Assembly: GCA_016186635.1 (NCBI GenBank)
Contig: JACPLI010000020.1
Location: 3,548-67,547, forward strand
Reading direction: 5' to 3'
Length of the DNA stretch: 64,000 nt
Source of the DNA: Candidatus Liptonbacteria bacterium
GTDB lineage: Bacteria > Patescibacteriota > Minisyncoccia > UBA6257 > 2-01-FULL-56-20
Of this stretch, positions 39,779-44,394 are shown piece by piece. The position numbers were made by a program, and so were the translations under genes. Each line of letters begins with the position of its first letter. Positions within the stretch are counted from its first letter, which is position 1. The notes under the pieces were generated by a model. The model was not told the origin of the DNA. It saw only the letters and a list, made by a program, of their open reading frames with translations, and did not search any database.

Positions 39779-40447
39779 TTACTTCAACCCCAAGATATTT
39801 TTAGCAATGGCCGGCACCTCGCGGCGGAAATATGCCTTTATTTCTCCCCACGTCGCCTTAAAGAAAAGGGTTGGCATAGGGTCGTCTTCCGCCTCCGTAA
39901 AATAAGTTAAGCTTTTGATGAAGTGCGGGAAGTTCAGATTTTTTGTTGGATAGTGTTCTTGCACGCGAGAGAGAATGTCGCAAAGCGGCTCCCGATTTTT
40001 GACATACCAGTACAGGTCAACAAAATCGCGCTTGCGGCAACGCTGACTGATTGCAATAATCTTCATCACCGCAATATCTTCCGGAGGAAGGATTTTAACG
40101 GTGCCGAAACGCGTGAATGTTCCTGAAGCGACGAAAAAGGGATAGGCGATAAAACTCGCTTTTGCTCCCGCATACTCTCCGTATAATGTGCCGGCGGTTG
40201 CCGATGTTGTGTTCCAATCGCCAGTTTTGAGAAGTACCCCTTCGAGCGCAAGCCGGTCAAACTCGGCTTCCGGCGTGAAAAAATCCAAATCAACGGACTG
40301 GCGATGTCCGACTTGCAGCGCGAGCGCCGTGCCCCCCGCGAGATACCAGCCGCCTCCGCGAAAAAGCGGCATCTTTGAGAATGTTTCAAGCGCGTGCTTG
40401 GTGTCCGCAGGCAATGCCTCAAAATGGAATCCATCAACTTGTTGCAT
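39779..40447 (-). CDS. AbiEii/AbiGii-type nucleotidyltransferase toxin
   Basis: YLAGGTALAL..GHR.S.DLDFF and K...R...RDF.D motifs. Confidence 0.9.
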   Translation of the reverse strand: MQQVDGFHFEALPADTKHALETFSKMPLFRGGGWYLAGGTALALQVGHRQSVDLDFFTPEAEFDRLALEGVLLKTGDWNTTSATAGTLYGEYAGAKASFIAYPFFVASGTFTRFGTVKILPPEDIAVMKIIAISQRCRKRDFVDLYWYVKNREPLCDILSRVQEHYPTKNLNFPHFIKSLTYFTEAEDDPMPTLFFKATWGEIKAYFRREVPAIAKNILGLK

Positions 40448-40464
40448 GGTGTGCGGTACCGTTA

Positions 40465-40719
40465 TCAAGCAAACACAAGTTTCCACAATGCTCGCGATTG
40501 CGGCTGCAGCACGCGAGAGGTGAGCACTACCTTCTTGATGAGCGACTTGGGATAATACGCCGCCATCCATCGCAACTCGTCGTCTCTTCCGAAATCCAGA
40601 ATCCGCTCAATCACATAGACCGCGTGTTTCTTCGGGTCAATCGTCTTCGGGTCAACGTCCCAAAAAAGCGATTGCCGAAATCGCATTGCGGGCGTGGCGC
40701 TTTTTTTCGCGACCTTCAT
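40465..40719 (-). CDS. DUF6922-like small partner protein (antitoxin candidate)
   Basis: LFWDVD and YVIERIL.FG motifs, upstream of the AbiEii gene. Confidence 0.8.
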   Translation of the reverse strand: MKVAKKSATPAMRFRQSLFWDVDPKTIDPKKHAVYVIERILDFGRDDELRWMAAYYPKSLIKKVVLTSRVLQPQSRALWKLVFA

Positions 40720-40868
40720 GTGTCGCCTATATTTTAGCATTTTTTACTCATTCTTTCTAATTTATTTCTCTCGGTTTTTTTGTTGCTCCGGATTCCGAAG
40801 TTGGACTTCCGGGAGGAAGGATTGTGATTGTACTTTCTTCCCTCTGATTGAGAAGCCGGAAGCGGGAT

Positions 40869-41300
40869 TTATTTTTCTTTTCCGACGAATGCGCGCACCT
40901 GCCGCGTATATTCCCCAAAATCGCCGTAGTTTTTCTTCGTATTTCGCACAAAGAGAGCCCTATCCAGTTTTTCGTATTGGTGCACAATCATGTTTCGCAC
41001 GCCGACAATCGGAGCTATTGTGAACGCAAAGTTTTTCTCTATCACATTCATCTCGCCAAGCAAGCGGAAGGTGCCCTCCAAATCGTCCGGCGCGCCAAGG
41101 TGTTTTTCCTTGATGATGTGCCGGTTGATATCTATCATGGCGTCAACTGCGAGCTGAAAAACCCGCTCAAGCGCGTGATATTTAACACTATCTTTCAAAA
41201 TATCGTCGTCCGAGAACTCGGCAACAAAGGGCTTTATTTCTCCCACATAACCTGCCAGCAGATGCAGCTTTTTCTCCACAAGCGCAAAATCGAGCGTCAT
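40869..41300 (-). CDS. HEPN/DUF86 (HepT-like) toxin
   Basis: RNMIVHQY (RX4H) motif. Confidence 0.9.
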   Translation of the reverse strand: MTLDFALVEKKLHLLAGYVGEIKPFVAEFSDDDILKDSVKYHALERVFQLAVDAMIDINRHIIKEKHLGAPDDLEGTFRLLGEMNVIEKNFAFTIAPIVGVRNMIVHQYEKLDRALFVRNTKKNYGDFGEYTRQVRAFVGKEK

Positions 41301-41698
41301 AGTTTTGAAAGCGTGTAATCAAGGAAATCCCTTCGCAGTTCAAACAATATTTCTGCATCATCGTAGTTCCGGAGCGCATATAAATATGCCTCGTTAAAAA
41401 GCGATTGACTTCGCTCATACAGCACCACCGCATTCGTCACGATCTGCTTCGCGAGAAGCGGGGGCGCAGTTTTCAGATTCACGAGCGACACCTTGTCGTT
41501 CCGAAAAACCTCCGTCAGGTCGAAATTCAAAAGCACCTCATCGTCAAACGAGAGTTTTTTGTCCGCGAGATATGCCACGTCCACATCGCTTTCCTTGTGC
41601 GTCTGCCCTGTTGCCTGCGAGCCGAAAAGCACGACCAACGAAAGGCCGTATTTCTCGGCAAGCGCGGCGATATGGGGTTGTGTTGATGCAATATTCAT
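41297..41698 (-). CDS. MNT (MntA-like) antitoxin
   Basis: LFGS.A.G...SDVD motif; overlaps the HEPN start. Confidence 0.9.
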   Translation of the reverse strand: MNIASTQPHIAALAEKYGLSLVVLFGSQATGQTHKESDVDVAYLADKKLSFDDEVLLNFDLTEVFRNDKVSLVNLKTAPPLLAKQIVTNAVVLYERSQSLFNEAYLYALRNYDDAEILFELRRDFLDYTLSKL

Positions 41699-41792: not shown

Positions 41793-41822
41793 TTGACAAG
41801 ATAGCATAAAGTATGCTATATT
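41793..41822 (+). promoter_or_regulatory. Sigma70-type promoter overlapped by a palindromic operator
   Basis: TTGACA (41793), TGcTATATT, inverted repeat ATAGCATA-AAG-TATGCTAT (41801-41819). Confidence 0.7.
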
Positions 41823-41859
41823 TACACCGTTATTTTGCAGTTCTTTCACACAGCAAAAT

Positions 41860-42348
41860 CGTTTGAACCCCGTTGTTGTACGAGAATAGCACCATGCTAG
41901 TCACTAAGTCCTAATGGCTAAGTTCTAGTGGCTGTCATTGAGCTATTCTCGTGTGAGCGTAGCCAGTATCTTCGCCTCCTGTCTCTTTTGAGAGAATGGA
42001 CGAACGGTATCGCGCTACCGCAACAGCGCATCTCCATTTCCGATGACCTCAGTGGACCGCTGGGTTCGAAACTCGGGCAATGCCCGAGTAATGGTGCAGT
42101 GGGATGATCAAACTGGAAGGGTTCCAGCACTCATCCTTTCCACCCATTACCATGGGGATGGTGGCGGGCAGGATGCCCGCTTCGTGCGGATTCAGATTGG
42201 AAAACCCCTCTATTTTTCGCCCGCAATGTAAAAATGTGCGGGCACGCCGAAAGGCAATGGAGACGACTGAATCCTGTAGATTCGGTCAGGTGGAGCCCTG
42301 AGCTACGTCGAAGGGCTCCACCAATCTCTACTGTTCTCGGTTCCAACG
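41860..42348 (+). ncRNA. Large multi-domain structured RNA candidate, family not recognised
   Basis: Closing stem CGTTTGAACC/GGTTCCAACG with many nested internal helices; follows a promoter and a boxA-like motif. Confidence 0.65.
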
Positions 42349-42394: not shown

Positions 42395-42468
42395 GGGGCG
42401 AAAGAGTCAAAAACTCAATCGCCCCGCTCAATTGAGTCCATAAGCGAAAGTTTGTGGATTCATAGAGC
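42395..42468 (+). repeat. RNA-motif repeat copy 1 (invariant TCGCCCCGCTCAATTGAGTCC)
   Basis: 21-mer at 42419-42439 with variable hairpins on both sides. Confidence 0.85.
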
Positions 42469-42667
42469 AAGCAGTTCTTTCAAATCAATAAAATTGGAAT
42501 CTGGAAGAATTCGTTGCTGCACTTGTAGGAAGCGCAAAGATTATCAAAATAGTTTTTGCGCTTCCTATGAGGAACGCAGGCGATATCGGCGGGCCGCAAA
42601 CATGCCGATAAACTTCACGCCCACTGGAAAGGCGCTATGCCAAGTCCTACGGGCACGAGGAGATAGT

Positions 42668-43429
42668 ATGGAAAATAACCAGCAGAATCAGTCGTATCGG
42701 GTATTCACCATCAATTCCGGGAGCATCACCGAAGGCGCGCCGGTTCAGATGGTGAAAATCGCGCAAGGGACAGTTGAGATTTTCGCGGTCACGGTCGGGG
42801 AGAGTGGCCGTGGGCGCCAACTCGGTATGGTCCCGGTGGACCGGCCGCCGCACACGGCTTGCTCGAACCGGAATCGAGAAATGTCCGGCGAAAAGTGCGA
42901 CAAATGCGGTGTCGCGCTTGAGAATGGCAAGCACCCGGACAAAGGAGAGGTGCCGGGGCGGCTCATGTTCGCGGAGTTGGGGCAGACAAAGTCCGGGAAA
43001 CCCAAACTTTTCTCGAAACCGTCGGCGACTTCGGATGAAAAGGTCATCGCTGTTTTCAGTACGATGATTGGTTTCCGGGGCGGCAATTCGCATACCGGAG
43101 ACCGCGCGGGGTGGACTTGTTCGTGCGGTGAGTCTGCTGACACCGCCAGGCCGGAAAAGTGCCCCAAGTGCGGTGGGACTGAAGGTCTGAAGAATAAATT
43201 CGCGCAGTTTCCTGGTGAGATTATCTGCCAGGGTACCATCGCCGAAGGAGACGCGGGGCGGATGGGGAGCGGCGAGCAGCTCGTCGCGTTCATGCCGAAG
43301 GATGTGGTTTTCCGAACATCCTACTCGGGGCGGCTCTATGGGAAGCCGGGTGCCCACTATTACAAGTGGACTGGCGAGAAATTCCTCGCCGCCACGTGGG
43401 AAGATCGGTCGGCGGCGGATCTGTTCTAG
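42668..43429 (+). CDS. Orphan protein with two zinc-ribbon-like inserts
   Basis: GAGGAG ribosome site, ATG 42668, CDKCG and CSCG...CPKCG. Confidence 0.8.
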   Translation: MENNQQNQSYRVFTINSGSITEGAPVQMVKIAQGTVEIFAVTVGESGRGRQLGMVPVDRPPHTACSNRNREMSGEKCDKCGVALENGKHPDKGEVPGRLMFAELGQTKSGKPKLFSKPSATSDEKVIAVFSTMIGFRGGNSHTGDRAGWTCSCGESADTARPEKCPKCGGTEGLKNKFAQFPGEIICQGTIAEGDAGRMGSGEQLVAFMPKDVVFRTSYSGRLYGKPGAHYYKWTGEKFLAATWEDRSAADLF

Positions 43430-43480
43430 GTTCCAATCGGGAGAAGGAAAACTTCCTAAAAACAAACCAAAAAACATTTA

Positions 43481-43563
43481 GCGGGCGATTGGGAAAACCT
43501 GATCGCCCCGCTCAATTGAGTCCGTCGCGCCGTGAGTACGGAATGCGGTGGCCTCAACAGAGT
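43481..43563 (+). repeat. RNA-motif repeat copy 2
   Basis: 21-mer at 43503-43523. Confidence 0.85.
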
Positions 43564-43583: not shown

Positions 43584-43916
43584 ATGAAAAGAATAATCGT
43601 CCAAAAGGCGACGGATTTCTGGCCAACCTACGACCCTAAGAAATGGGTTGCCTTCGAGGAGGGGAAAAACCCATCGGAGGGGAGTACGGGCAGTACTTTT
43701 GGGTTGGCGGCCATGGCGCTCGCTGCGAACGTGGCCGATGAGAGCGAAATACCGCCGATGCAGGTACGCATCACGGTAACGCTCAATCGGCCAAGGGATG
43801 CGGTACTCATGGTTTGGAAGTTTTTCCTCGCTTTTCTGAAGCTGCTATTTGGGGAAAAGCAGATTCGGATAAGTATGGATCCCTTGTCGATGTTTGTCGA
43901 CAAGGTACAGCGTTGA
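43584..43916 (+). CDS. Small orphan protein
   Basis: ORF filling the space between repeat copies 2 and 3. Confidence 0.6.
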   Translation: MKRIIVQKATDFWPTYDPKKWVAFEEGKNPSEGSTGSTFGLAAMALAANVADESEIPPMQVRITVTLNRPRDAVLMVWKFFLAFLKLLFGEKQIRISMDPLSMFVDKVQR

Positions 43917-43923
43917 AATTTTT

Positions 43924-44000
43924 GCGGGCGAGTGGTTCTATTCCATTCGCCCCGCTCAATTGAGTCCGAGAGTGAAAGATTCTCGCGAGCTGAACAGAGC
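43924..44000 (+). repeat. RNA-motif repeat copy 3
   Basis: 21-mer at 43947-43967. Confidence 0.85.
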
Positions 44001-44038
44001 GATTTAAAAATAAAAACGTGAAAGGAGGTGAAAAGCAA

Positions 44039-44302
44039 ATGCTGAAAATCCCGAAAAACGGGGCGGAAATCCAAACGGTCAAAGGGATACAATATCTCGT
44101 TGCCCGGCTGGATGCGCAGAAAACCTGCGCGGACTACCTGAACGCGCTTCGGAGAGGAGAGACCGTGGTTGTGCCGCTTTCAAAAAGGACACATCTCACG
44201 GGGCTTCTTAAGAGGGAATCCATTTTTACTCGGCAAAAGACACTTGTTGCCGGGAAATGGATCTCTTTCACTCCGTGTGAAGAAAGGGAGTTCAAGCCTT
44301 AA
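44039..44302 (+). CDS. Small basic orphan protein
   Basis: Strong AAAGGAGGTG Shine-Dalgarno before ATG 44039. Confidence 0.7.
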   Translation: MLKIPKNGAEIQTVKGIQYLVARLDAQKTCADYLNALRRGETVVVPLSKRTHLTGLLKRESIFTRQKTLVAGKWISFTPCEEREFKP

Positions 44303-44362: not shown

Positions 44363-44394
44363 GGAGGTGCAAAAACGCACCTCCTTTTGCTTTT
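44363..44394 (+). terminator. Intrinsic terminator closing the ncRNA/orphan unit
   Basis: GGAGGTGC-AAAAAC-GCACCTCC followed by T runs. Confidence 0.8.

Follow-up and report, generated by a model that had tools for sequence, protein, structure and literature searches.

A predicted rRNA-precursor-like closing helix frames exchangeable genes in a Candidatus Liptonbacteria array

A boxA motif followed by a leader–trailer helix is regarded as a signature of rRNA precursors, and in the early region of phage T7 a polycistronic RNA is cut to single-gene mRNAs by host RNase III. Accounts of the Escherichia coli rRNA system describe a boxA-loaded complex that links the leader to RNA polymerase so that the helix halves meet (bioRxiv 10.64898/2026.03.17.712431), a 16S leader–trailer helix that needs more than 17 bp (PMC10250234), and cleavage of leader–trailer helices by RNase III (PMC10250234). 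The Bacillus subtilis hbs mRNA is described as pairing its 5' and 3' ends over 14 bp, which modulates endonuclease cleavage and ties stability to translation (PMC5737220). We found no description of boxA-headed helices around swappable open reading frames (ORFs) in searches of the open-access literature. Here we analyse such a helix in a window of 64,000 nucleotides from a Candidatus Liptonbacteria genome of 921 kb (completeness 97.85%), in which all features lie on the plus strand unless stated otherwise.

The helix lies in an array that is part of a variable island, with a uvrA-like gene on one side and a uvrC-like gene on the other (names read from translations). One strong sigma70-type promoter with an extended −10 element (41793–41822; 11 of 12 consensus positions) stands at the head of the array, as it does in three related loci (L063, L064, and L065), and is followed by three copies of a hairpin spacer in which no promoter was called. 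The adjoining minus strand (39779–41698) carries two toxin–antitoxin-type pairs, a nucleotidyltransferase with a HepT-like protein and a DUF6922 protein with AbiEii, and no recombinase gene was found among the scanned ORFs adjoining the array. Rfam returned nothing at gathering score for the array; with E relaxed to 10, its matches did not rise above chance level. DNA contigs from four runs of one study, which may be where this DNA comes from, contained no joint within the array, on contigs that lose rare variants.

The initial annotation proposed that a whole ORF is enclosed by a 14-bp long-range stem containing its stop codon. Fourteen contiguous pairs, two of them G-U, do form between a 5' arm (ATTGGAATCTGGAA, 42493–42506) and a 3' arm (TTCTAGGTTCCAAT, 43424–43437) that includes the stop codon (TAG, 43427–43429) of a 253-aa cargo ORF, P0001 (42668–43429). 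The boxA-like motif named with it is present as well (GCAGTTCTTTCAAA, 42471–42484), 8 nt before the 5' arm; GTTCTTTCAAA matches 10 of the 11 positions of GYTCTTTAANA (PMC5725501), a gammaproteobacterial consensus that is rare in the 16S leaders of this family. No longer helix joins the 197-nt leader to the 90 nt around the stop codon. Dinucleotide shuffles reached at least 14 bp in 2 of 1000 cases, and in 0 of 1000 with at most two G-U pairs. At that stricter setting 9 of 695 genome ORFs qualify, one being the same gene read from an upstream ATG and the three others inspected owing their helices to heptamer repeats or to the inverted termini of a transposase-like gene. A 320-aa transposase-like ORF flanked by perfect 30-bp inverted repeats occurs at about 26260–27345 of contig C3 in genome G000.

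Ensemble folding gives the arms a pairing probability of 0.84–1.0 in the single unit and 0.82–1.0 in a two-unit transcript. A pairing that would enclose the spacer instead, between the 3' arm of unit 1 and the 5' arm of unit 2, was rejected, having probability 0 and weaker duplexes. Past a 1-nt bulge the helix is predicted to run about 12 bp further into the last codons, for a total of about 26 bp, with an inner 5' arm at 42508–42519 and its predicted partner at about 43406–43422; a purine tract (43439–43448) is predicted to pair with the boxA-like motif, which would lengthen the clasp. The coding region is mildly more structured than codon shuffles (z −2.2). The 14-bp helix and the frame around it can be regarded as a real, selected RNA feature.

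The leader between the 5' arm and the ORF is itself structured. The hairpin noticed earlier in this 5' UTR is real and, at 23 bp (42522–42571), longer than claimed, and it covaries in 13 aligned leaders. A conserved motif, TTCACGCYCAC...ACGRGCACGA (42614–42659), forms a stem with AC-rich internal loops, the base of which overlaps a Shine-Dalgarno (SD)-like GAGGAG (42657–42662) in a family whose 16S genes mostly lack an anti-SD. P0001 belongs to an unnamed all-beta family, seen in Patescibacteria and phages, in which two Cys-rich ribbons are optional, and its description as a zinc-ribbon orphan must be amended on both counts: 678 of 925 candidates are homologs, and the ribbons are insertions missing in many members. 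Among the homologs found, the named relatives are mostly Patescibacteria and phage contigs, and two Pseudanabaena phages carry a member amid hypothetical genes. Structure prediction, which had been suggested as a check, yielded confident AlphaFold2 models (pLDDT 95 and 94) that are nearly all-beta but matched no solved fold; the best VIA matches (Z 4.8 and 5.0) are weak and do not show a new fold. Sequence searches of Pfam, PHROGs, NCBIfam, PADLOC, and PDB gave weak ribbon matches only, and an uncharacterised rudivirus protein matched weakly (E 7e-4, TM 0.47/0.51). We take P0001 to be a passenger; judging only by conserved Gly/Arg/Tyr/His loops, our rather doubtful guess is that it may serve as a soluble accessory protein binding nucleic acids or nucleotides.

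The unit upstream of P0001 has the same construction. Its boxA-like motif (41837–41850; kept in L063, L064, and L172) precedes a 5' closing arm (41860–41869) that forms 9 of 10 pairs with a 3' closing arm (42339–42348), with pair probabilities of 0.86–0.97 in the two-unit transcript and 0.34–0.38 when folded alone. This stem had been read as the closing stem of a non-coding RNA; the stem is real, but the supposed non-coding RNA is another cassette with a cargo slot, filled here by a putatively coding 62-codon ORF without an SD (42043–42231) and in L063, L064, and L065 by ORFs of 217–232 aa. Its leader and trailer (41880–42040 and 42246–42330) belong to a type A scaffold, also present in L063, L064, L166, L167, and L170, with a conserved 5' hairpin into which different repeats are inserted, no SD, a conserved multi-hairpin 3' UTR, and a CTCCATT before the ATG that is complementary to AATGGAG after the ORF. 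In L063, a run of four additional G (2274–2277) lies after the stop codon and before the 3' arm and is bulged out in the predicted helix, and in L064 a gene copy is apparently out of frame near its start (about 1692–1720; possibly an assembly error). Downstream of P0001, the third cargo ORF (43584–43916; 110 aa from its ATG, 122 from a GTG at 43548) showed no TTGGAA/TTCCAA arms, and the fourth (44039–44302; 87 aa) has a strong SD and is followed by a terminator-like hairpin (44363–44384). Arms are missing from two of the four cargo ORFs of the window.

Spacer elements occupy 42395–42468, 43481–43563, and 43924–44001, the first consisting of a G/C hairpin and then a conserved hairpin with an internal loop. 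The hairpin of the window's spacer covaries at 6 of 15 pairs and has neither a ribozyme match in Rfam nor a hammerhead core motif. As an RNA, the spacer is genus-specific, with the G/C hairpin followed by CUC-AA-UUGAGUCC...GGAUUCA-UAGAG, and it also occurs in L144, L145, L153, L157, L168, and L169; the exact pattern was found in none of the other 299 of 301 genomes of the order, and a single viral match, of unrelated sequence, is due to chance. We rejected the spacer as a palindromic DNA site, the CTCAATTGAG palindrome being broken in 3 of 14 spacers with the hairpin intact. The spacer RNA sits in the slot that hammerheads fill in sister arrays, and is a candidate cleavage element.

When the upstream non-coding DNA was used as a query, the frame was recovered from 4 of 4 genus relatives, with short repeat matches only elsewhere, and the frame is present in all five genus genomes. 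Each unit runs in the same order, from a boxA-like motif through an A-rich run to a TTGGAA arm 8–12 nt from the motif, a structured leader, the ORF, a TTCCAA arm, and a spacer. Eleven cassettes, delimited by hand in the genus and its closest metagenomic relatives (few related genomes, not independent), share a TTGGAA/TTCCAA-type core of 7–15 contiguous pairs around unrelated cargo of 62–470 aa, most genus arms reaching only 7–11 contiguous bp. At two outer pairs both sides change within units, one alternating between G-C and A-U and the other among C-G, G-C, and A-U. The expectation that complementary flanks covary in homologous loci is therefore borne out among close homologs, by compensatory pairs around unrelated cargo in a small, non-independent sample. 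Cognate arm pairs do not outrank non-cognate ones in the 11 cassettes (ranks 2–10 of 11), which conservation of the core sequence itself would lead one to expect. The combined pattern of boxA and TTGGAA has 7 matches in 4 of 5 genus genomes against 0 for the reversed control, in a host genome whose heptamer repeats also commonly contain the words TTGGAA and TTCCAA. It was rejected as a family-wide marker: 24 of 121 family genomes match, but the reversed control often matches too, and the inspected matches outside the genus lack the frame. Pfam matched none of the 10 scanned cargo ORFs. The P0001 gene was absent from all 60 relatives searched, so that the cargo moves and the frame stays. Comparison of these sequences identifies the 14-bp helix as the stem that closes a reusable gene-cassette frame, which the genus keeps around genes unrelated to one another.

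Beyond the genus, complementary flanks are seen in about half of the leader-sharing Patescibacteria loci but not in the protein family at large. As a trait of the whole family the stem was rejected, with a mean score of 8.97 versus 8.56 and scores of at least 12 in 5 of 93 loci versus 1.8% (93 de-duplicated loci out of 109). A homologous leader of about 200 nt precedes 14 of 96 family loci, with covariation at 14 of 32 pairs among 13 aligned leaders, and its model matches in 3 of 149 other genomes of the phylum, once before a distant P0001 homolog. In 7 of 13 cases (4 of 7 groups) the leader forms a better duplex with its own stop region than with any 3' end of another group, the arm sequences differing. 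An energy scan over 2.4 kb was negative, with the 5' arm finding its best partner close to the stop codon in 3 of 34 loci (1.1 expected; two incomplete loci dropped). A second test took the longest contiguous helix formed by the 35 nt after boxA; the region at the stop codon ranked in the top decile for 16 of 35 loci and for 10 of 22 groups, or 9 of 21 groups without the group of the window (p ~1e-4), and 2 of 5 genome-search matches passed; this test was devised after the examples and the negative energy scan, on loci that had partly been inspected beforehand. For leader-sharing loci generally, a helix at the stop codon is suggestive only.

Ribozymes accompany several of these arrays. L069/L070 contains a boxA-like motif, an arm, a family ORF, and an arm, then a type III hammerhead, then a second boxA-headed unit in which the arms enclose an unrelated 306-aa ORF with its stop codon; the L069 hammerhead has an Rfam E of 2.3e-7, slightly under gathering. 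Of 93 family loci, 7 have a hammerhead core nearby on the sense strand and none has one on the antisense strand, and in one genus array (L168) a core precedes the boxA-like motif. A scan for the core CUGANGA...GAAA found none in the host genome of the window. Longer arrays with at least four boxA-headed leaders and varied small ORFs are seen in L012 (337–4800), L223 (G409 C13), and L141, the L012 array containing one hammerhead core. Phage-like loci, including L016, L037, L039, and L055, carry family members in arrays with twister-P1 and type II hammerhead ribozymes (Rfam) and repeated GC-rich spacers.

The core of the cassette arms recurs in the rRNA helices of the lineage. The 16S leader–trailer helix of genomes G001 and G002 (AGTTGTTCCAAT/ATTGGAACAACT) ends in GTTCCAAT/ATTGGAAC, the cassette core, which was found in 10 of 16 family 16S helices (17 loci given, one dropped); no 16S was found in G000. 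For the 23S helix, ATTGGGAT/ATCCCAAT, the two arms were seen in G001 and G107, and the 5' arm also in G002 and G004; the cassette arms share its orientation. The overlap is about 7 bp only, at one helix end, and most rRNA helices span 22–31 bp. A GTTCTTT-type motif precedes only 3 of 16 family 16S genes, so the cassette motif is closer to canonical boxA than the lineage's own rRNA leaders are. The 16S and 23S genes are not linked and have separate promoters, and a conserved element, GGGTYCTYGCCTCGCGGATCGCACGCGATGGGCG, precedes the 23S helix (L202, L204, and L207). Genes for NusB, RNase III, and the SuhB family occur in 5 of 5 genus genomes, the last being Inositol_P matches and hence putative SuhB orthologs; nusB and rnc are adjacent in all five (1605–2475 of contig C14 in G000). 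Neither Rho, searched for by two domains, nor RtcB was found in any of the five (completeness 96–99%). The analogy with rRNA operons drawn in the initial annotation gains support from the arms, their compensatory pairs, the common core, and the NusB, RNase III, and SuhB genes, but is strained by the rarity of boxA in 16S leaders and by helix length: set against the E. coli minimum, the window has 14 plus 12 bp with a bulge, and most sister cassettes have 7–11 contiguous bp.

A canonical anti-SD tail ends 1 of 16 family 16S genes, a second regex match being off position. L226, possibly a foreign contig, has such a tail together with a canonical boxA and a helix unlike that of the others; L197, L198, and L227–L240 have 16S 3' ends without the tail. 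Loss of the anti-SD has been published for a Parcubacteria subgroup (PMC9297842), and the genes of G000 are without SD (5 of 246 operon-internal starts, versus 8 in a control window). An SD is nonetheless carried by 19 of 21 P0001-type leaders, among them all 4 from close kin of the window, counted from hand-picked starts and irrespective of the anti-SD status of distant hosts. As a general trait of the genus cassettes the SD was rejected: one lenient rule, which got the L064 start wrong, found it at 5 of 26 array ORFs and at 49 of 704 genome ORFs. Overlapping the base of the leader stem as it does, the SD may be structural or inherited. A far bolder reading, in our view highly doubtful, would make the cassettes dedicated mRNAs packaged in rRNA style, looped by Nus factors, released by ribozymes or the undescribed spacer RNA, and long-lived through the end clasp; some, led by an SD that the anti-SD-less ribosome of their own cell could not read, would then be stable messages from an episymbiont to the ribosomes of its host cell.

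We propose, with about as much belief as doubt, that the cassettes encode single-gene RNAs that are cut in the spacers and closed by a Nus-assisted clasp in the manner of rRNA leaders and trailers. With NusB and NusE bound to the boxA-like motif, the 5' arm would stay tethered to RNA polymerase, as in the E. coli rrn complex, over the roughly 940 nt of transcription that separate it from the 3' arm. Since Rho was not found, such looping is a better rationale for boxA than antitermination against Rho. Cleavage of the long transcript at the unit boundaries would fall to hammerheads in the sister arrays and, in the window, to the spacer element or a host nuclease, and the paired ends would protect each released RNA. 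With the stop codon inside or next to the 3' arm, a ribosome that terminates there would unzip the clasp close to the leader, coupling stability or re-initiation to translation.

The same helix might instead be an RNase III substrate, cut as in pre-rRNA; by symmetry with the rRNA helix, the cut would lie about 11–12 bp in from its CCAAT end, on the stop codon or just ahead of it, so that in this unit cleavage would act as a decay or off switch rather than in maturation. A core common to both rRNA helices, an rnc gene beside nusB in 5 of 5 genomes, and the total of about 26 bp with one bulge would suit such an enzyme, known to cleave leader–trailer helices in the work cited above. We nevertheless consider this reading unlikely: only one end of the rRNA helices is shared, and distant arrays use unrelated arm sequences and already have hammerheads. 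RNase III needs about two helical turns, and most sister cassettes offer the 7–11 contiguous bp given above. Circularisation, which the initial annotation entertained alongside excision and stabilisation, would have each unit excised and ligated into a circular RNA. The helix brings the ends together and sister-array hammerheads could in principle ligate them, but RtcB was found in none of the five nearly complete genomes, which leaves the claim unsupported, the window's array has no ribozyme or Rfam match, and Perreault et al., who looked for circular RNAs made by clustered hammerheads, report no such product (PMC3088659); we regard this outcome as barely credible.

Descent could also account for the frame, if it had been inherited from early-gene arrays of phages or other hosts and were now largely vestigial, with boxA, SD, and arms kept by ancestry. 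The protein family is common in phage contigs, a canonical boxA and an SD suit other bacteria better than this lineage, and about half of the leader-bearing loci have no clear stem; yet arms, leader, and spacer all show compensatory changes, the arm core matches the lineage's own rRNA helices, and the frame is in all five genus genomes, which makes vestigiality quite improbable. Slightly less probable still is an action at the DNA level, in which arms and spacers would be homology blocks or cassette ends for cargo swaps, like the PeSL elements of T4-type phages, with RNA pairing secondary. Cargo does differ among close relatives in the same frame, P0001 itself is missing from all 60 of the relatives searched, and PeSL-mediated shuffling has been reported (PMC2839356). 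The pairing, though, tolerates G-U pairs and bulges and is strand-specific, the spacer hairpin holds where its palindrome is broken, and the scanned neighbouring ORFs include no recombinase. Recombination may account for the shuffling, but not for a covarying helix.

Should the proposed clasp exist, a Nus role in RNA looping would be separable from antitermination, in a bacterium where Rho was not found, and arrays of variable genes would have a route to stable single-gene mRNAs. The design of rRNA precursors would have been reused as a socket for interchangeable protein genes. The frame is searchable and may mark unnamed accessory genes that uncultured episymbionts appear to express strongly, and its cassettes are concrete substrates for studying how SD-led genes are read without an anti-SD.

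Several known systems share parts of this design. The RNase III sites of T7 are local hairpins between genes, whereas the window's helix encloses a gene. In hbs, a 14-bp pairing of the 5' and 3' UTRs likewise surrounds one ORF; it is a single housekeeping gene, and the abstract of its account does not mention a boxA, an array, cargo exchange, or an rRNA-like core (PMC5737220). The clustered hammerheads of prophages flank single genes in arrays of inconstant content and cut them into gene-length RNAs (PMC3088659), and the sister arrays described here have hammerheads in the spacer slot as those clusters do; the window's spacer, in contrast, is not a hammerhead, and the description of the prophage clusters makes no mention, in the passages considered, of a boxA or closing helix (PMC3088659). 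T4-type PeSL also combine repeated intergenic elements with variable orphan genes and modular shuffling, but are described as a promoter–terminator unit for each gene, acting at the DNA level, where the window's array has one promoter and paired RNA arms (PMC2839356). Compared with PeSL and integrons, the array has no promoter and terminator per repeat, and no integrase with attC among the adjacent genes scanned. The rRNA system itself, with its rrnTAC complex of NusA, NusB, NusE, NusG, and SuhB, and with RNase III, is described with the same layout of a boxA-like motif, then a 5' arm, and a 3' arm about 1 kb away (PMC10250234, PMC11404451). As in that system, the motif is repeated for each unit, the core is common to the lineage's rRNA helices, and NusB, RNase III, and SuhB-family factors are encoded. 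Unlike it, the window's unit encloses swappable protein-coding cargo (a 253-aa ORF with no Rfam match) rather than an rRNA, its helices are shorter (7–15 contiguous bp), its 3' arm overlaps the stop codon, and Rho was not found. By this analogy, the cassette would work like the rRNA boxA and leader–trailer system but is not a member of it.
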